Source: Actinomycetes bacterium
GTDB taxonomy: Bacteria; Actinomycetota; Actinomycetes; Nanopelagicales; Nanopelagicaceae
DNA length: 64,000 bases
Assembly: GCA_037142435.1 (NCBI GenBank)
Contig: JBAXAO010000002.1
Span: 730 to 64,729, forward strand
Reading direction: 5' to 3'
The translations under genes and the position numbers were made by a program. The notes under the pieces are model-generated. The model saw only the letters and a program-made list of their open reading frames with translations. It had not been told where the DNA came from and did no database searches. Positions within the stretch are counted from its first letter, which is position 1, and each line of letters opens with the position of its first letter. Shown in pieces: positions 36,114 to 59,884 of the stretch.

Positions 36114-36185
36114 TGCCCCCGGCAGGAATCGAACCTGCGCCCCCGCCTCCGGAGGGCGGTGCTCTATCCCCTGAGCTACGGGGGC
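36114..36185 (-). tRNA. tRNA-Arg (anticodon CCG), CCA not encoded
   Basis: The reverse complement folds as GCCCCCG-TA-GCTC-AGGGGATA-GAGC-A-CCGCC-CTCCGGA-GGCGG-GGGC-GCAGG-TTCGATT-CCTGC-CGGGGGC-A. The anticodon loop CU-CCG-GA gives CCG. Confidence 0.9.
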
Positions 36186-52384: not shown

Positions 52385-53269
52385 TTAGATGCGGACCGCA
52401 AAATCGCGCTCCCTTGATATGAAGAAATATCCACCGATGAGTACGGCAAGAAGTGCCCAGACAACCGAACCGACCAGCATTCCTAAACTTGGAGTTCTGC
52501 CTTCGATCCATACATCAGATGTTGCAGCCAGAGAAGGTCCCAGCGGATTGATATAAAGAAAAATCTTGTGCCAGCCATGAAGAATCTCTGGGCGCCACAA
52601 AACAGGGGATGAGTACAACCAGATGCGCGTGATGTAACTCAGCAATTTGTTGGTATCTCGGAAATAAACGTTCATGGTCGCAAAGAGCAGACCCATTCCG
52701 TAACCGGTGATGCCGACACACAAAAGAATGAAGGGCGCCCACAAATAGCTAAGTCGTAGCCCTGGTATTTGAGTGTGCGGGAAGAAGAGCTTTCCAATCA
52801 GGACAACAAAGATGTAAACCGGCAAGGTTGGCAAGAACTGCCAGAAAGCGCTGATCGAACTGGAGAGCGGCAGGAGCGCGCGGGGGAAGGCTTGATTGAG
52901 AATCAAGCGACCACCGGCTGTAATCGAGAGCGCGCCACCATTGATCGAGTTAGAGGCGAAGTAAAAGGTGAAAAGTCCGATCAAGATGTGGGCCAAGGTA
53001 CTGAGGCCAGTTTTCTCGGTGCTGCCACCTCGGATGACGGTGACCAAAAGGAAGTAGACAAAGGCCAAGAGCAGCGGGTTCATGACCAGCCAGACCTTGC
53101 CCAGCTTGGAATCTAGGTATTCGGCCTTGTCGGCAAAGCGCGAGAGCTCGATGGCAAAGGCGCGACGACGCCAGAACTCCTTGAGATAGGGAATTAACGG
53201 CGGCAGGGAAGCTCGGTGGGGCTTAAAAACCTGGATTGCCGGCGCAAAGTTTGTCTTGGGATTGGCCAT
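52385..53269 (-). CDS. ABC-2 type exporter permease (Wzm/TagG-like)
   Basis: Six TM helices, a charged N-terminus and family-typical size, immediately upstream of the ATPase. Confidence 0.8.
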   Translation of the reverse strand: MANPKTNFAPAIQVFKPHRASLPPLIPYLKEFWRRRAFAIELSRFADKAEYLDSKLGKVWLVMNPLLLAFVYFLLVTVIRGGSTEKTGLSTLAHILIGLFTFYFASNSINGGALSITAGGRLILNQAFPRALLPLSSSISAFWQFLPTLPVYIFVVLIGKLFFPHTQIPGLRLSYLWAPFILLCVGITGYGMGLLFATMNVYFRDTNKLLSYITRIWLYSSPVLWRPEILHGWHKIFLYINPLGPSLAATSDVWIEGRTPSLGMLVGSVVWALLAVLIGGYFFISRERDFAVRI

Positions 53270-53400
53270 GGTGGCCTAAGTCTGCCACCTACTGGCCTGT
53301 GGATTGCACAGAAGCGGCTCATTCACGCCCGCGCCTGTCAGTGCCGGGGAGAGCATTTGCCCCGCACCTCCCACATCATCAAAGAGAACGGAATATAGAT

Positions 53401-53739
53401 ATGAATAAATCCACCCGAGTACTTGCTATCGCCGCGTTGGTCAGCGGGTTGGCGTTGCCAACAGTGGCAGCCGAGGCATCTGGGATCACCCCTGCTGCCG
53501 CCTCGACCCCTGCCCAGACGGTGCCGGCGACTACGGCAACCGCCCCGACCACAGCCGGCGCACCTCTTTCTTCGGAAGCTGCGCCTGCTCCGGTTAAGAA
53601 AGTTGTCAAGCGGGCAAAGCGCACCACGGCCAAGACTGCCGCAAAGCGCAAGCGTGCATCTTCTGCCACCGCCAAAAAGGCAGCGATGAAGAAAGTTGCC
53701 ACGAAGAAGCGCGTTCGCCGCGTCAAGCCTCGTATTTAA
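53401..53739 (+). CDS. secreted protein: signal peptide, Ala/Pro/Thr linker, polybasic tail
   Basis: MNKSTRVLAIAALVSGLALPTVAAEA signal peptide. 22 of the last 48 residues are K/R and none are D/E (hand count). ATG 53401 is preferred over the tracked 53236. Confidence 0.6.
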   Translation: MNKSTRVLAIAALVSGLALPTVAAEASGITPAAASTPAQTVPATTATAPTTAGAPLSSEAAPAPVKKVVKRAKRTTAKTAAKRKRASSATAKKAAMKKVATKKRVRRVKPRI

Positions 53740-53787: not shown

Positions 53788-53940
53788 TCCTCACGGTTCT
53801 AACCCTTTTACACCTATTTCCTCACAACCACCTCAGATACGAGATGTTAAATAAAGCATCGAGACTTTTAAGTATGGGTTACCTTGTAATGAGTATTCTC
53901 AAGGAGTAACTTCCTAATGAAGAGAGAAGAGGACAGTTTC

Positions 53941-54285
53941 ATGGACATTGTTATCCACGCCCGTAACTCCCAACTCGCCGAAGATTTTCGAGATATCGTC
54001 CATGAAAAACTTCGCTCTCTTGATCGGTTCAGTGTTGTAGTTGAAGGAATCAAAGTCGAAGTTATGCACGAACCCAATCCCAGATTCGGAAAGACTGCAC
54101 ATACGGTGACATTAACTACCAATGGCAGTGGTCCATTTCTGCGCGCCGAAGGAAAAGCATTTAATGATCTCGCGGCCTTTGATGAGGCGGTAACGAGCCT
54201 TGAACTCCAATTACGAAAGGCGCACGAGCGCGCTAAAGATTATGGCCACGATTCACTGCGCACCAAGAATGTGGTTGGCGAATAA
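53941..54285 (+). CDS. hpf: ribosome hibernation factor, short HPF/RaiA (S30AE) type
   Basis: The MDIVIHARNSQLAEDFRDIVHEKL... pattern with beta-alpha-beta-beta-beta-alpha layout is like YfiA/HPF. There is no long C-terminal dimerisation domain. Confidence 0.75.
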   Translation: MDIVIHARNSQLAEDFRDIVHEKLRSLDRFSVVVEGIKVEVMHEPNPRFGKTAHTVTLTTNGSGPFLRAEGKAFNDLAAFDEAVTSLELQLRKAHERAKDYGHDSLRTKNVVGE

Positions 54286-54287
54286 CT

Positions 54288-55037
54288 TTAGAGAAATACT
54301 TTAGGTAGAGCCGCAAGTACATCGGTTGCGACTACCGGGAAACTTTTTGTTGCCGCAATTTTTCCTGCCGTACCGTGGGCTTTAACCGCGCGCATCGCAA
54401 CTTTTGCCGCCTCTTCAAAAGTAGTCGGCTTCCAGGCCGCCATCATTGACGCCATAAGTCCGGCCAAAATATCGCCAGTACCAGCAGTGGCTAGTTCCCG
54501 GCCACCAGTTTTCTCGACTTCGACCAAACCGTTTGGTGTGGCAATCACAGTGCCTGGACCCTTTAAAACTACGAGGACATTGAGCTCACTAGCCATCTTT
54601 AGCGCCGTTGCTTTGCGATCGGTTACGGGATAACCGAGTTTGGCGGCTTCGCCTTCATGTGGAGTCACTATGGTGATTCCTTCATGTGCGCTGTTGGCTA
54701 GCGTCATTGCCGAGCCATCGAGCACCAAGATGCCACCGGAGGGAAAGTGGGTGAGGTCTGGAGATCCTGACCCCAACACCCAAGCATCAACTTCGTGACC
54801 CACTAGATCAGTAATGGGTACAACATCGGGATAATTTTGAAGTACTAAATGAGTTGGAAAGTCATGTTGCGCTAAATACTTCACATACCCCGCGCCACCA
54901 CGCCTGGCTCCACCCACACATAAAACGGCAGCTCCCGGAAATTGCACCGAGCCCGCGACAACTCCTACAACGCCTTTCGAATACTTGTAAGCATCGACAG
55001 GGACTTCGGGAAAGTATGGATCTTCGGCCTTGGACAT
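54288..55037 (-). CDS. ADP-dependent NAD(P)H-hydrate dehydratase (YjeF C-terminal/carbohydrate kinase family)
   Basis: KGVVGVVAGS, VLKGPGTVIA and GTGDILAG motifs. Confidence 0.8.
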   Translation of the reverse strand: MSKAEDPYFPEVPVDAYKYSKGVVGVVAGSVQFPGAAVLCVGGARRGGAGYVKYLAQHDFPTHLVLQNYPDVVPITDLVGHEVDAWVLGSGSPDLTHFPSGGILVLDGSAMTLANSAHEGITIVTPHEGEAAKLGYPVTDRKATALKMASELNVLVVLKGPGTVIATPNGLVEVEKTGGRELATAGTGDILAGLMASMMAAWKPTTFEEAAKVAMRAVKAHGTAGKIAATKSFPVVATDVLAALPKVFL

Positions 55038-55155: not shown

Positions 55156-55737
55156 TTACTTCGTTCCGACAGCAGCCTTAAAGATTGCTTGTGCTGCGGC
55201 AAGTCCTGCTTTGTAAGCATCACGTGCGGCGGTGACGGCAGCTTCGTGAGTAGCTTGTGCAGCATCATTTGCACTCTTGCGTGCGGTAGCTGCAGCAGCA
55301 ATTGCGGCTTTATGAGCATCCATTGCTGAAGTAACGGCAGTTTTCAGTGCGGCATTTGCAGCATCGATTGCAGCTTTTCCGGCTACCTTGTCAGTGTTTG
55401 CTTTAGCGGCGGTAACTGCAGTGGCGTGTGTCGCCTTGGCAGCAGCAACTGCTGCTTCACGAGCGCTCTTTGCAGCAGCGGCAGCGGCTTCAAATTTCAC
55501 TTTATTAGCGTCGGTTGCGGCGATACGTGCAGCCTTGGCATCGGCCACGGCCTTATCCAATGTTGCTTTGAGAGTGACTTTGGTGGCATCAAGAACAGCC
55601 TTGGCGGCAGTGCGGGCTGCGGAGTTTGCACCAGTTGCCTTAGGGGCAGGGGTGGTGTCGGCAGCGAAGACTGGGGTTGCGGTCAAGAGAAGACCGGTGG
55701 CAACTGCACCGATCAGGAGCTTGGCGGAGTTTTTCAT
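55156..55737 (-). CDS. secreted alanine-rich repetitive helical protein
   Basis: Signal peptide MKNSAKLLIGAVATGLLLTATPVFA. The protein has 75/193 Ala (hand count) and degenerate repeats such as KATHATAVTAAKAN / QATHEAAVTAARDA. There is no Cys. Confidence 0.7.
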   Translation of the reverse strand: MKNSAKLLIGAVATGLLLTATPVFAADTTPAPKATGANSAARTAAKAVLDATKVTLKATLDKAVADAKAARIAATDANKVKFEAAAAAAKSAREAAVAAAKATHATAVTAAKANTDKVAGKAAIDAANAALKTAVTSAMDAHKAAIAAAATARKSANDAAQATHEAAVTAARDAYKAGLAAAQAIFKAAVGTK

Positions 55738-56015
55738 TTCTTAATCCTTTGCACTAAGGGTGCCTGCAGGTGGCACCGGATTCCTACAAGAGGAAATGTG
55801 CCCTAGGCCATTGCGAAAGGTCATTGACGATTCTGTGAAAATTCATTGAACTCTCGCCTCAGCCAAACCCCACGATCTGCACAAAATTGACGAACAAATG
55901 GCAAATTTGCAGATTTTGAGCGCGAGCCAGCACTTAAGCCGAAAAATTTGTGAGCATTTTCAGCGTGAATTTTGCAACACAGGTCTATGGTAATCGGAAC
56001 GAGTTAGGGGAGCAC

Positions 56016-56186
56016 ATGCATTTCTTATCAATAGATCTCAACCACCCCGCCCACTACCTGCATTTTGGAGTCGTCTCGATTTCCGTCGGAAATCTGGTCA
56101 TGATCGCCTCGATAGTGGTTCTTTTTGTTCTGGCGCTGGCGCTGCCGTTTCCAAATCATCACGACGATGAGGGGTCTCACAAATGA
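56016..56186 (+). CDS. His-rich single-TM mini-protein (56 aa)
   Basis: MHFLSIDLNHPAHYLHF...TM...FPNHHDDEGSHK. GAGTTAGGGGAG lies upstream of ATG 56016, and there is ATGA overlap with the cytochrome b gene. Confidence 0.5.
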   Translation: MHFLSIDLNHPAHYLHFGVVSISVGNLVMIASIVVLFVLALALPFPNHHDDEGSHK

Positions 56187-56794
56187 GCAAACCAAAGATG
56201 TGGACCACGCGCGTTCGCGAAGCGACGCTTGAGAAATACGAACCAACCGATATTTTGCCCGACACTCAACCGGCATATGTTGCCTCTTGGATTTATGTAT
56301 TCGGCGTAGCAACCATCGCCTGCTTTGTGATGTTGGTAGCGACTGGCCTTTGGCTTTCCTTCGAAGGTCCAGCGTGGTGGCACACCTCCAGTGTTGGCCA
56401 CTACGCCAACTCTCTCCATCTGTGGAGCGTTGAACTCTTCTTCGTCTTCATGGTTGTGCACCTTTGGGGCAAGTTCTGGATGGCTGCATGGCGCGGAAAG
56501 CGCACCTCTACGTGGGTTACGGGTGTCATCGCCTTCATGGCCTCGATCATCACCGGCTTCACCGGTTATTTGATTCAGGGCAACTTCGATTCTCAATGGA
56601 TTGCAACCCAAGCAAAAGATGGCTTTAACGCCATGGGTATCGGTGCTTATTTCAATCCGCTAAATACCGGTCAAGCAATGTTGATTCACGTTGCGTTGAT
56701 GCCACTTGTTCTCGGAGGCATCGTTGTCTGGCATGTCATCTTGGTTCGCAAGCGCGGGGTAGTACCCCCCATCGAGGCAGGAGCAGACGAATGA
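56183..56794 (+). CDS. di-haem cytochrome b6-like protein (cytochrome b N-terminal domain only, 4 TM)
   Basis: The helix B His pair (SLHLW...VVHLW) has 13 intervening residues. The helix D His pair (IHVALMPLVLGGIVVWHV) has 14, which is b6-type spacing. Confidence 0.75.
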   Translation: MSKPKMWTTRVREATLEKYEPTDILPDTQPAYVASWIYVFGVATIACFVMLVATGLWLSFEGPAWWHTSSVGHYANSLHLWSVELFFVFMVVHLWGKFWMAAWRGKRTSTWVTGVIAFMASIITGFTGYLIQGNFDSQWIATQAKDGFNAMGIGAYFNPLNTGQAMLIHVALMPLVLGGIVVWHVILVRKRGVVPPIEAGADE

Positions 56795-57735
56795 CGCGTG
56801 CACTTTCCAAACACGATCCAGCTAAAAAGTGGAGCGGTCCTACTCGTCCTTACGACCTCATTAAAGAATTTGTTATCGCACTTGTTGTGGTGGCAATTCT
56901 TGCTGGTGGTTTAGCTGCGGTCTTTAGTTCCCCTGATGAACCAGCACTGACTTTGAAATCTTGGTCCACGACAGATCCTGCTGACTTTGTTCAGACTTCT
57001 GTCGGCGAACTCGCCGGCACAACTACCAGCGCAGGTTACGGCGCCCCATACAACACCGCCGCAGAGGGACAGGTCCTCGGACCGCTCAAGCTGCAAAAGT
57101 GGGCTGGAGTCCGTATCCCTATTAATCCTGCAAAGGATTTCGTGATTTCACCGCTATTGATCCTGCCCGATGCTGCGGTCAAGCAAGCAGTAAACGAATG
57201 GAACGTGGCCACCTCGGATGCACAAACCAAGTGGGCAACTGCTTATGCAGATGCTTTGGCAAAGTCACCAAAGTCAACATCTCTTGAAGATGCAGCGGGT
57301 AACTATGGACCAGTTCCAACAATCACTACTGCATTGTTGAACATGGCTCAAACTGGGGCGCTAGATGGTGCGTTAACGACAAGTGACACACCACTTCCAA
57401 CCAACTTCACCAAGCCAATGCTCTTTATTGCCGACAGCGGTACTTACTTCCCAGATCTCGCTTCAGCACAGCATCTCAGCGGCGATCAATGGGGCGTTAT
57501 GAATGAGACGGGATCTTGGCCAGGACAATCTTGGCTTTGGCTCTTCTCTTTCTTCTATCAAGTCGAACCATTCAAGTCATCGGAAAATGCGGATACTCAA
57601 GTAATGAGCCTCTTAGGACTTTTGACACTCCTCTTGATGTTCCTTCCTCTGATTCCGTTGCTGCGTCGGATTCCTTACCGAATTCCGATTCATCGTCTGA
57701 TCTGGCGCGATTGGTATCGACGCAAGAAAGCATAA
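56791..57735 (+). CDS. hypothetical membrane protein, possible divergent subunit-IV/cytochrome b C-terminal analogue with large external domain
   Basis: An N-terminal TM, then a hydrophilic domain of about 220 aa, then QSWLWLFSFFYQVEP...LLGLLTLLLMFLPLIPLL resembling PEWYFF...LLGVLLM of subunit IV. The tail is basic. ATGA overlap with cytochrome b. Confidence 0.45.
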   Translation: MTRALSKHDPAKKWSGPTRPYDLIKEFVIALVVVAILAGGLAAVFSSPDEPALTLKSWSTTDPADFVQTSVGELAGTTTSAGYGAPYNTAAEGQVLGPLKLQKWAGVRIPINPAKDFVISPLLILPDAAVKQAVNEWNVATSDAQTKWATAYADALAKSPKSTSLEDAAGNYGPVPTITTALLNMAQTGALDGALTTSDTPLPTNFTKPMLFIADSGTYFPDLASAQHLSGDQWGVMNETGSWPGQSWLWLFSFFYQVEPFKSSENADTQVMSLLGLLTLLLMFLPLIPLLRRIPYRIPIHRLIWRDWYRRKKA

Positions 57736-57757: not shown

Positions 57758-57804
57758 AAAGCGACCTTTCCTACCTAGAATTCCTCGGTATGAAAGGTCG
57801 CTTT
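57758..57804 (+). promoter_or_regulatory. strong stem-loop (13 bp + 4 bp) overlapping the next start codon; terminator/attenuator-like
   Basis: AAAGCGACCTTTC (57758-70) pairs perfectly with GAAAGGTCGCTTT (57792-804). Inner TACC/GGTA extends the stem. It is followed by CTTAATT. ATG 57790-92 lies inside the structure. Confidence 0.55.
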
Positions 57805-58686
57805 CTTAATTCAGTCATCGGCTCACTTCTCTATATATCCCTGCTGATTGCCTCGGTGGCAACCGGTGCTCACTTTGTCCTCGGCCACGTCACGGATTTG
57901 GGAGCCTCATCTTCGGCATTAGTAAAAGATTTCGGTGCCAAGAAGAGCACCATCGTTCCGATGTTGATCGATCAAGTTGTAAAGAACGCCGATGCCAAAG
58001 AGGCGAAGACGATCAATCAAAATCGCGCACAGATCACCAAGGCGCTTAATGATTTGCTCGACAATCCCAAGTTTTCCGATGCACTCTCAAAGACATTAGA
58101 GCCAGTCGGGGCAGCCCTGGCCGCCGGCCAGGAATCAGTTCAATTAGATACCACCGTATTGGTGAAAACAATCTCTGATGAAGTAAACAAAGTCGCCGGA
58201 AAGACCGTCATCTCGCCAAAGGATTTAAAGAGTATTTCTAAACCGCAACCGCTTGATCTCAAGCAACCTGCCAAGATATTCAAGACCGTGAAAAACATCA
58301 TTGATTTGCTGATGCTCTTTTGGATTTTGGCGTTGTTGCTTTTGATCATTCTCTTCATTCGTAAGCGCGAAGCGGCCTTCAAGCTCCTTGGTAAATTTTT
58401 CTTGGCTCTGGGCGTACCAGTCCTGGTCATTTGGTTTGTTATCCCGACGATTTTGGTTCACTTTGCCAATTCCAACGTTGACTCTAATCTCCCCGGGACG
58501 TTATTGCCCATTGCCTTTAAAGAAGTAACTGGTTTCACAGAGATCATGGGAATTGGTTTTACCGCATTAGGCGTTATATTCCTTGTTGCGGCCAAAATGA
58601 CCGCGAAAAAGAGCCGTGGTTCAAATGTCCATGGTCCACTACTGAAGGCGGAATCAAATGTCGAAGGTGATCTCCGGTCTAGCTGA
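57790..58686 (+). CDS. hypothetical membrane protein (N-terminal TM, Lys-rich external domain, about 4 C-terminal TM)
   Basis: Hydropathy was read from the translation. I do not recognise a family. Confidence 0.5.
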   Translation: MKGRFLNSVIGSLLYISLLIASVATGAHFVLGHVTDLGASSSALVKDFGAKKSTIVPMLIDQVVKNADAKEAKTINQNRAQITKALNDLLDNPKFSDALSKTLEPVGAALAAGQESVQLDTTVLVKTISDEVNKVAGKTVISPKDLKSISKPQPLDLKQPAKIFKTVKNIIDLLMLFWILALLLLIILFIRKREAAFKLLGKFFLALGVPVLVIWFVIPTILVHFANSNVDSNLPGTLLPIAFKEVTGFTEIMGIGFTALGVIFLVAAKMTAKKSRGSNVHGPLLKAESNVEGDLRSS

Positions 58687-59884
58687 AGGCTGGTGGATGT
58701 TCTTTGACACCTTTTGGGCGTTGATTTTCGGCTTTATCTTGTCTGGCGCAGTTCAGGCCTTCGTCTCTAAATCACAGATGCAATCTGCTTTGGGAGATCG
58801 CAAGCCTAAGACCGTCGCTAAGGCTTCATTCTTTGGCGCCGTAAGTTCTTCCTGTTCTTATGCCGCAAGTGCATTGGCCAAGAGCCTCTTTGCCAAGGGC
58901 GCTGATTTCACCGCTTCGATGATCTTCATGTTTGCCAGCACCAACCTTGTGATCGAACTCGGTTTGGTGTTATGGATTCTCATAGGTTGGCAATTTGCAG
59001 CCGCTGAATTTGTTGGTGGCACGGTCATGATTCTTCTGCTCTGGATTTTATTGCCTCGCCTTGTCCCAGAGAAAATGGTTATCGCCGGCAGATCGATGGT
59101 CGAAGTTCCCGATTCCATGGAGATGTCCTCGGGGGAAAGTATCGGCACCAAAATCAAAAGTCGTAAGGCCTGGTCAAATGCCGCGGGTTACACCATTGGC
59201 GATTTCACCATGTTGCGCGTTGAGCTCGTTGTTGGATTCATCGTCGCGGGGCTGGCCTCGACATTGGTATCCGTCTCCGTTTGGCGCAGCCTCTTCATTT
59301 CAGGCCATGGCTTTTTCTCTGAAATTGAAAATGCAATTATCGGGCCATTCTTGGCTTTCATTAGTTTTGTCTGCTCGGTTGGAAACGTTCCGTTGGCAGC
59401 GGCGCTCTGGAAAGGTGGCATCACTTTCGGTGGCGTAATTGCCTTTATCTTTGCCGACTTGATTGCATTTCCCTTAGTGATGATTTACCGAAAATATTAT
59501 GGAACGCGTTTGGCTATTCGTCTGACCCTTGTCTTCTGGTTGGTCATGGCTGTCAGCGGGCTGGTGACCGAAGAAATTTTCAAGGTTTTCTCTTTAATCC
59601 CTCATCGCCATTTGGATCTGATGGCTATGAAACACTTTGGCTGGAACTCCACGACCATTCTCAACTTCGTTGCTCTCTTTGCTGCGGGCATCATTTATTG
59701 GCTCTACAAGACCCAATCTGGCAATAGTGACGACAGCGAATACGCCAAAGATCTAGTTTGCGGAATGCAGGTTCGCAAGTCTGACGCACCTGCTGTGGCC
59801 GAACTCGATGGAGTTACTTATTACTTCTGCATGGTTGGCTGTAAAGAATCGTTATTGGCCACCCCAGAAAAGTACCTTAAATAG
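58658..59884 (+). CDS. predicted permease (DUF318/ArsP-like family) fused to C-terminal YHS/TRASH metal-binding domain
   Basis: Polytopic body with AVSSSCSYAA and FVCSVGNVPLAAALW segments. The C-terminus DLVCGMQVRK...GVTYYFCMVGCKESLLATPEKY matches the YHS pattern. Confidence 0.65.
   Translation: MSKVISGLAEGWWMFFDTFWALIFGFILSGAVQAFVSKSQMQSALGDRKPKTVAKASFFGAVSSSCSYAASALAKSLFAKGADFTASMIFMFASTNLVIELGLVLWILIGWQFAAAEFVGGTVMILLLWILLPRLVPEKMVIAGRSMVEVPDSMEMSSGESIGTKIKSRKAWSNAAGYTIGDFTMLRVELVVGFIVAGLASTLVSVSVWRSLFISGHGFFSEIENAIIGPFLAFISFVCSVGNVPLAAALWKGGITFGGVIAFIFADLIAFPLVMIYRKYYGTRLAIRLTLVFWLVMAVSGLVTEEIFKVFSLIPHRHLDLMAMKHFGWNSTTILNFVALFAAGIIYWLYKTQSGNSDDSEYAKDLVCGMQVRKSDAPAVAELDGVTYYFCMVGCKESLLATPEKYLK

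Follow-up and report, generated by a model that had tools for sequence, protein, structure and literature searches.

The 64,000-nucleotide stretch analyzed here (contig JBAXAO010000002.1 of a Nanopelagicaceae actinomycete, positions 730 to 64,729; hereafter the window) harbors a three-gene cassette at 56016..57735 (+) that belongs to the cytochrome b family and represents a widespread form of it for which we found no earlier description. All three genes lie on the same strand and encode products of 56, 203, and 314 amino acids (aa): a mini-subunit with one transmembrane (TM) helix, a b6-type cytochrome b, and a partner protein that stands in the place of the cytochrome b C-domain. On balance, we favor the interpretation that their products form a single transmembrane electron module, which would work independently of a Rieske protein and is probably linked to menaquinone. 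No equivalent was known to the sequence-only reading that first pointed to this region, and our literature searches likewise gave no description of the family; none of the published cytochrome b surveys consulted describes a b6-like gene accompanied by a loop-expanded two-helix partner and a mini-subunit.

The three genes are chained by ATGA overlaps of 4 bp, as had been described from the sequence. The stop codon of gene 1 (56184-56186) overlaps the ATG of gene 2 at 56183, and the stop codon of gene 2 (56792-56794) overlaps the ATG of gene 3 at 56791. Gene 1 is listed among the open reading frames (ORFs) as a 78-aa frame with a GTG start at 55950; the conserved 56-aa form starts from the ATG at 56016, which is preceded by the Shine-Dalgarno-like GGGGAG and coincides with the point where its homologues begin. 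The G+C content is ~0.51 throughout the region with no compositional break. As gene 3 has more than 4,600 homologues, all of them named "hypothetical protein", these genes are not chance ORFs.

The second gene (56183..56794, +) encodes the b6-type N-terminal domain of cytochrome b with helices A-D and two b hemes, as identified from Pfam and Protein Data Bank (PDB) matches. The 203-aa protein passed the thresholds of Pfam Cytochrom_B_N_2 (PF13631; 47.1 bits against a cut-off of 27, E 3.4e-12) and Cytochrome_B (PF00033; 34 bits against a cut-off of 27.2, E 3.3e-08), and a match to Ni_hydr_CYTB at 0.0033 was below threshold. Its best PDB relatives were cytochrome b6 chains (1q90_B, E 4.6e-11), followed by the cytochromes b of bc1 and QcrB, with QcrB chains matching at 1e-6 to 3e-5. 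The helix B ligands His79 (56417-56419) and His93 (56459-56461), spanning 56417..56461 (+), align to b6 His86 and His100, and the helix D ligands His169 (56687-56689) and His184 (56732-56734), spanning 56687..56734 (+), align to b6 His187 and His202. The intervals of 13 and 14 residues follow the b6-type pattern. All four heme ligands are 100% conserved among 132 family members, which upholds the description of a four-helix cytochrome b with both bis-His pairs.

The same 132 sequences showed invariant n-side residues R104, R107, and R189 and a family-specific p-side His67 that is 99% conserved. The p-side loops are very strongly conserved at His67, K145, D146, N149, G152, G154, N158, G163, and Q164. 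The residues Val39-Phe40-Gly41-Val42 align to Cys35-x-Gly-Gly of b6 and depart from the heme-ci CxGG motif; covalent heme ci is thus not expected, since Val39 replaces Cys35. On the basis of its profile matches and ligand pattern, the gene 2 product is a genuine b6-type cytochrome b. With NCBIfam scores far under the cut-offs, the protein is no equivalog of b6, QcrB, ExtP, or SoxC: the top match was ExtP NF040969 (3.3e-14; 53 bits, equivalog cut-off 290), and PRK03735 (cytochrome b6) and bc1_QcrB_actin gave 47.9 bits against a cut-off of 325 and 22.7 bits against a cut-off of 500, respectively.

The third gene (56791..57735, +) probably encodes a counterpart of the cytochrome b C-domain or subunit IV that is truncated and has an expanded loop, as suggested by its position, its fusions, and profile-profile alignment. 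The layout given in the sequence-only reading is accurate: an N-terminal TM helix is followed by a hydrophilic stretch of ~195-200 aa, the segment QSWLWLFSFFYQ...LLGLLTLLLMF, and finally a tail rich in basic residues. Only two hydrophobic helices are present, at residues ~27-45 and 268-290, in agreement with the secondary structure of the AlphaFold2 (AF2) model of a fused homologue. Residues 10-45 (56818..56925, +) comprise a cytoplasmic PYDLIKE lead-in, TM helix 1 as the helix E equivalent, and an FSSPD end. Residues 46-243 (56926..57519, +) form an extracytoplasmic, mostly helical domain in the ef loop, in which ~195 residues are inserted between FSSPD and PGQxW. Residues 244-290 (57520..57660, +) contain PGQSWLWLFSFFYQ as the ef helix equivalent, TM helix 2 as the helix F equivalent, and an FLPLIP end. 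The remaining residues 291-314 (57661..57735, +) make up a basic, Trp-rich cytoplasmic tail, RRIPYRIPIHRLIWRDWYRRKKA.

Support for this equivalence was obtained with hhalign, using a canonical C-domain/subunit IV profile of 21 sequences composed of bovine cytochrome b 206-379, four b6f subunit IV sequences (PDB-checked), and diverse bacterial, plastid, and mitochondrial sequences drawn from metagenomes. Residues 10-38 (..GPTRPYDLIKEFVIALV..) matched bovine cytochrome b 212-240 (..IPFHPYYTIKDILGALL..) at helix E with a score of 27.0 and P 0.004, the bovine segment containing PFHPYYTIKDILG. Residues 250-290 (WLFSFFYQ...helix...FLPLIP) matched bovine 272-309 (WYFLFAYAILRSIPNKLGG...IPLL), covering the ef helix and helix F, with a score of 25.6 and P 0.007. 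The two matches are colinear and at the expected places. In the control of 100 column shuffles within 20-column blocks, the best score was 14.3 ± 2.3 with a maximum of 22.5, and a second match almost never occurred. One-sided reversal scored ~17, and the matches returned when both profiles were reversed.

K25-E26 of the 314-aa protein align to K227-D228 of the Qi site, with E26 conserved in at least 90% of sequences, and the family keeps PY..IK[DE] before helix E, F..PD at the end of helix E, and a Pro-rich PFIP exit after helix F. W248 and Y256 are invariant in the aromatic ef helix, and Y256 aligns to bovine Y278. In the C-terminal tail, P295, the H/Y301-R302 pair, and W305 are conserved. 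The positional equivalence of the 314-aa protein to the cytochrome b C-domain/subunit IV is certain, and the weak but controlled alignments support a probable homology to helices E and F, to which the Foldseek ranking and the weak SoxC match described below lend further support.

The likeness to subunit IV seen in the sequence-only reading therefore holds for position and for the weak helix E and ef/F matches, but the PEWY motif is lost and two TM helices are present rather than three. The PEWY position reads W248-L249-W250-L251, with W248 invariant and L249 nearly so, and it does not match P-[EDAPV]-W-[YF]. Helices G and H are absent, and neither the three (E-G) nor the four (E-H) TM helices are found. 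The same reading had described an expanded Qo loop, and the external domain does sit in the ef loop; however, the catalytic Qo motif is gone, and since the Pro, Glu, and Tyr of PEWY are all missing, "Qo site" is used here as a positional and not a functional term. Gly, Pro, and aromatic residues predominate among the conserved positions of the inserted domain (YGPPYN, W148, YGPVP, QWG, and N238-E239), and AF2 modeled this domain in the fused homologue P0403 with a predicted local distance difference test score (pLDDT) of 82-97.

The cassette is widespread in Actinomycetota and Chloroflexota. The closest gene 3 homologues belong to freshwater Actinomycetes and "Candidatus Nanopelagicaceae" metagenome-assembled genomes (MAGs), and a profile search of a 50%-identity representative library with the gene 3 family recovered 1,082 representatives. 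In a scan of genomes, relatives turned up in at least 589 species, with taxa such as Streptomyces, Kitasatospora, Pedococcus, Lacisediminihabitans, Frankiales, Kineosporiaceae, Acidimicrobiia, Solirubrobacterales, and a Chloroflexia MAG; Nanopelagicales-type MAGs and Microbacteriaceae are also among the cassette loci. One locus (L022, CAYXIS010000120.1) comes from an "uncultured Bifidobacterium sp." MAG and encodes a partner protein 63% identical to that of the window, which points to mislabeling or contamination of the bin and away from a gene of bifidobacterial origin.

Gene order and natural fusions argue that the three products act together. The cytochrome b orthologue lies immediately 5' of the 314-aa gene in 82 of the 83 loci, the lone exception being at a contig end, and the two genes are fused in two clades, so the 314-aa protein stands as the partner of the b6-like gene, as had been proposed. 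A dual fusion of cytochrome b and the 314-aa protein (~550 aa) was found in more than 120 Ktedonobacteraceae clusters at 90% identity, where the mini gene is separate and overlaps the fused gene by 4 bp. In Streptosporangiaceae-type MAGs, a triple fusion of ~620-640 aa (more than 120 clusters) has the mini-protein joined in frame to the N terminus of cytochrome b. Because the three fusion states keep the same order, the three genes most likely specify a single complex. The fusion order also fixes the topology, with the mini-protein N-out/C-in and the partner N-in, followed by a TM helix, ~195 residues outside, a second TM helix, and the basic tail inside. Together with the positive-inside rule, this topology would place the C-terminal tail of the 314-aa protein in the cytoplasm.

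The mini-subunit gene (56016..56186, +) was recognized from its translation and from homologues directly 5' of cytochrome b, which are present in 71 of the 83 loci. Its product, MHFLSIDLNHPAHYLHFGVVSISVGNLVMIASIVVLFVLALALPFPNHHDDEGSHK, has 56 aa and one TM helix, and the family consensus reads LN-HPAHYvHW..S..N..TM..PFP with a basic tail after it. The sequence-only reading had noted clusters of His at either end, and these are present in the window protein, but this His-richness is largely lineage-specific: no His is invariant among 70 homologues, and in most lineages Arg or Lys replaces His in a C terminus that is mostly basic (GRRRP-like). The N terminus (LNHPAHY..) would lie outside and the C terminus in the cytoplasm, a topology that agrees with the usually basic C terminus.

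No Rieske motif (CxHxGC...CxCH) was found in any frame of the window, and its translated ORFs contain no CxxCH. A second cytochrome b was likewise absent from the 64 kb. The 81 related loci (1.33 Mb) showed sporadic CxxCH motifs and a single Rieske motif, and no Rieske or cytochrome c gene was linked to the cassette in 81 of the 82 contexts examined, confirming the absence of such adjoining genes that had been noted from the window. The one Rieske motif belongs to a Chloroflexia MAG (L079:12181-13545, +), in a protein with a DoxD/DoxX membrane domain and a C-terminal Rieske 2Fe-2S domain encoded 2.2-3.5 kb downstream of the cassette. It was rejected as a conserved partner as it is a lone, unrelated DoxD/DoxX-Rieske fusion. 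A CxxCH-like CLACH at 56725-56739 (+) lies in the gene 3 frame within gene 2; since it precedes the first possible gene 3 start, its translation in that frame is not expected. Clustering of the flanking ORFs revealed no neighbor conserved in every clade.

Stress-type neighbors were found in 26 of 84 contexts. Tandem universal stress protein (USP) genes occur near the cassette in 14 loci, often as the next gene downstream, and GAF-GAF-HisKA_3 kinases with DosS/DosT-like architecture in 12. LuxR-type response regulators were present in 22 loci and a Pyr_redox_2 flavoprotein in 13, and HSP20, nitroreductases, and a cyclic-nucleotide (cNMP)-binding protein were each seen in single loci. USP-adjoining loci come from several orders and include L164 (8001-11364) and L165 (4903-10112); further USP or stress loci are L037, L043, L050, L055, L057, L058, L066, L068, L070, L072, L077, and L083.

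Upstream palindromes were also examined. The DosR-box-like GGGACnnnnGTCCC, allowing up to one mismatch, gave 14 matches in 11 loci within a 650-bp upstream window, where 2.6 were expected from the rate elsewhere in these loci (Poisson 6e-7). The matches are situated 50-230 bp 5' of the mini gene and are sometimes paired (L025, L027, L028, L030, L032, L048, L052, L054, L059, L063, and L164), and the motif ranks second among 1,024 palindromic half-sites. The top-ranked palindrome is a 14-bp GAGTGCTAGCACTC-like sequence found in 18 loci against 1.3 expected (P 7e-15), corresponding to two CIRCE arms that are swapped and abutting. Eleven freshwater Nanopelagicales-type loci (L001, L005, L006, L008-L013, L018, and L026) carry it 59-134 bp 5' of the mini gene, and seven looser single-mismatch matches occur in other clades at 41-567 bp (L077 not counted in this range). 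The upstream intergenic region of the window (55738..56015, +), shared with a divergent Ala-rich gene, contains a degenerate copy at 55922-55935. No DosR-box-like site was found in this region and a consensus scan gave no sigma-70-like site, the promoter and terminator scan being uninformative. In many Actinomycetota, the cassette may be part of a hypoxia/stress (DosR-like) regulon.

These features suggest a complex of seven TM helices, composed of the single-helix subunit, the four-helix cytochrome b with hemes bL and bH, and helix E, the ef helix, and helix F of the partner. The external domain of ~195 residues would lie over the p-side face, where canonical complexes hold the Qo pocket and the Rieske docking crater, and the conserved p-side loops of cytochrome b would face it. 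Such a complex would work without Rieske or cytochrome c subunits, as a two-heme transmembrane electron wire. At its n-side end, R189 and K25-E26 would mark a b6-like Qi-type menaquinone/menaquinol site; the b6-like character of this side and the alignment of K25-E26 to the Qi-site pair are the basis on which we infer the quinone linkage. At the p-side end, a remodeled site may be formed from the AB and cd loops (His67 and K145-D146) together with the inserted domain (N/H238-E/D239, W248, and Y256). The complex would then be a single-quinone-site wire resembling FdnI, NarI, or CybB in its working but non-homologous to them. Bifurcated quinol oxidation is implausible, as there is neither a Rieske cluster nor a PEWY motif, and the complex would thus not be a Q-cycle enzyme.

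More tentatively, the cassette might be an unrecognized respiratory module of Actinomycetota and Chloroflexota, in which the ef-loop domain would serve as a new extracytoplasmic catalytic or docking site wired via the hemes to the menaquinone pool. In this possible scheme, many lineages would use it for DosR-type hypoxia or dormancy, either as an emergency electron sink or as an arm of a redox loop that conserves proton-motive force at low oxygen. Given the DosR-like context, it may come into use under over-reduction of the quinone pool.

A number of observations weigh against the electron-module interpretation. A profile search of 56791..57735 against the cytochrome b C-terminal family had been suggested in the sequence-only reading; it gave no match to PF00032 for the protein or for any of 28 varied family members, with E values of up to 10 allowed. 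HMMER gave no Pfam or PDB match and no meaningful NCBIfam match for the protein, and family profiles, including a loop-deleted construct, searched against PDB, Pfam, and NCBIfam yielded nothing beyond a weak match to the SoxC cytochrome b (residues 250-305, E 0.011), the sole recurrent NCBIfam model, seen in 4 of the 28 members. However, authentic actinobacterial QcrB C-domains also escape detection by hidden Markov models (HMMs) (Kao and Hunte, PMC4122944), so the silence of HMMER is not decisive. The hhalign probabilities of the two matches were 5-14%, which is low in absolute terms. AF2 models of two natural fusions, with mean pLDDT values of 57.5 and 61.1, described the membrane part with low to moderate confidence. 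Foldseek with the triple-fusion model did recover cytochrome b, with long cytochromes b (bc1 and QcrB) first at E ~5e-5 over 420-560 columns and b6 alone at ~1e-3, but the superpositions were poor, with a root mean square deviation of ~20 Å; given these superpositions and the pLDDT of the membrane part, helix packing is not established. A p-side quinol site is doubtful since the Pro, Glu, and Tyr of PEWY are not conserved, and the inserted domain has no conserved Cys, His, or Met. No redox partner or substrate was identified from the loci examined, and recruitment of a Rieske protein from another locus is conceivable. Finally, the stress/DosR association covers about one-third of the loci, and none was seen in the window's own lineage.

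Recruitment from elsewhere is the core of one alternative, in which the cassette would be the cytochrome b core of an alternative bcc complex (complex III), enlisting QcrA and the diheme QcrC from other loci and running a Q cycle as a stress or hypoxia isoform. The genuine cytochrome b core and the equivalents of helix E, the ef helix, and helix F would fit such an enzyme, a stress-regulon context would suit an isoenzyme, and Rieske genes do not always adjoin their cytochrome b gene in surveys (PMC5600118). We nevertheless regard this alternative as unlikely, as W, L, and L replace the Pro, Glu, and Tyr of PEWY, the ~195-aa insertion falls exactly in the ef loop that forms the Rieske docking surface, and helices G and H are absent; the family also has its own dedicated single-helix subunit, and 81 of the 82 contexts lack a linked Rieske or cytochrome c gene. 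A non-catalytic role for the heme-loaded membrane protein, whether as a sensor of redox state or gas or as a chaperone or a factor for heme storage or delivery, with the external domain used for protein contacts, would explain why no partner enzyme is identifiable and would be consistent with the sensor kinases, regulators, and stress proteins near the cassette in some lineages. This appears quite improbable in view of the strict conservation of both bis-His sites and of the n-side R104, R107, and R189, which are typical of electron-transferring cytochromes b. Moreover, no signaling domain is fused to these proteins, and the cassette is retained in very small freshwater actinobacterial genomes, at loci with no adjacent regulator.

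The window itself could also be taken to indicate a transmembrane Cu/Fe reductase or metal-handling module, in which a His-rich mini-protein binds metal and works with an ArsP_1/YHS permease: the mini-protein has His at both ends, and a copper-type YHS permease gene lies 0.9 kb downstream and recurs in the nearest relatives. The wider family makes this very unlikely, with the permease neighbor present in just 6 of 83 loci, no invariant His in the mini-protein, whose His-rich C terminus becomes Arg/Lys in most lineages, and an external domain that lacks conserved Cys, His, and Met. Metal handling was therefore rejected as a family property, as neither the His-rich mini-protein nor the YHS permease is conserved.

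Among known systems, the cassette can be set beside PetB/PetD of b6f and the Bacillus-type split QcrB/QcrC. It shares with them a gene split after helix D, a four-helix cytochrome b with His intervals of 13/14 and a C-terminal R-K-x-G-V-x-P-P, and a following gene that opens with a probable helix E equivalent and continues with probable equivalents of the ef helix and helix F. It differs from both in having Val39 in place of the heme-ci Cys, two rather than three TM helices in the partner, WLWL in place of PEWY, the ~195-residue ef insertion, and an extra upstream single-helix subunit, and in having no Rieske, cytochrome f, or cytochrome c gene. Actinobacterial QcrB comes from the same phylum and shares the cytochrome b N-domain; with the fused homologue, Foldseek placed QcrB chains near the top of its matches, aligned over ~500 columns, and the fused forms are likewise "long" cytochromes b. 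However, the cassette has no adjoining qcrA or qcrC, lacks helices G and H and the QcrB extension, and does not contain PDWY, the Qo motif of QcrB (PMC4122944). Actinobacterial cytochromes b were counted as 613 long and 5 split (PMC4122944).

The membrane anchors FdnI, NarI, HyaC, and CybB/cytochrome b561 provide a proposed working analogy, in that two stacked b hemes join a quinone site to a redox site on the opposite face. They differ from the cassette in fold and in heme-ligand pattern, and they have identified catalytic partners. ExtP, from a selenite/tellurite reduction operon, resembles the 203-aa protein as a short b6-like cytochrome b outside the classical bc complexes, but its operon partners differ from those of the cassette. 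Several cytochrome b subfamilies of "obscure" function, not obviously tied to Rieske proteins, were reported in a published survey (PMC5600118). Subfamily K of the cytochrome b survey has altered heme ligands, whereas the cassette cytochrome b keeps all four His. The fused 550-640-aa forms could be the survey's "subfamily H", although the loop-expanded partner and the mini-subunit appear in the description of neither subfamily. Streptomyces has qcrCAB. Ktedonobacter racemifer is reported to have a separate canonical split Rieske/cytochrome b complex (PMC3509893). Because canonical complexes exist separately in these two lineages, the cassette represents an extra cytochrome b there.

Cytochrome b and the Rieske protein are usually taken as inseparable, forming the evolutionary core of complex III. 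The present family keeps the cytochrome b core and a probable remnant of the C-domain without linked Rieske or cytochrome c partners or PEWY, while a large external domain and a small subunit of its own have been added. It also amounts to a natural experiment in the forms that the Qo face of cytochrome b can take. Its members include Streptomyces and the very abundant freshwater acI-type actinobacteria. If the cassette encodes an electron-transfer enzyme, it would constitute an unknown branch of actinobacterial respiration, maybe tied to hypoxia survival and of medical and ecological interest. The family also offers an annotation for thousands of "hypothetical proteins", and its three fusion states ease single-chain expression.

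The window neighbors of the cassette comprise an S30AE hibernation factor, an NAD(P)HX dehydratase, an Ala-rich secreted protein, a membrane protein, an ArsP_1/YHS permease, and cell-envelope genes. About 2 kb 5' of the cassette, the gene for the 122-aa S30AE/HPF-type factor (53917-54285, +) is convergent with that of the NAD(P)HX dehydratase (54288-55037, -) and is syntenic in L004 and L005. Two low-complexity Ala/Lys/Thr-rich proteins with signal-like N termini and no Pfam family are encoded at 55156-55737 (-, 193 aa) and 53236-53739 (+, 167 aa), the former transcribed divergently from the cassette. Downstream, a gene for a 298-aa membrane protein of unknown family (57790-58686, +) is overlapped by 29 bp by that of the ArsP_1 permease (58658-59884, +), which carries a C-terminal YHS (copper-type) domain and has weak matches to Cu/Zn efflux families. 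This pair is kept solely in the nearest relatives. A plasmid search gave no match for the window, and its sole Rfam match was a tRNA at 36114-36185 (-).

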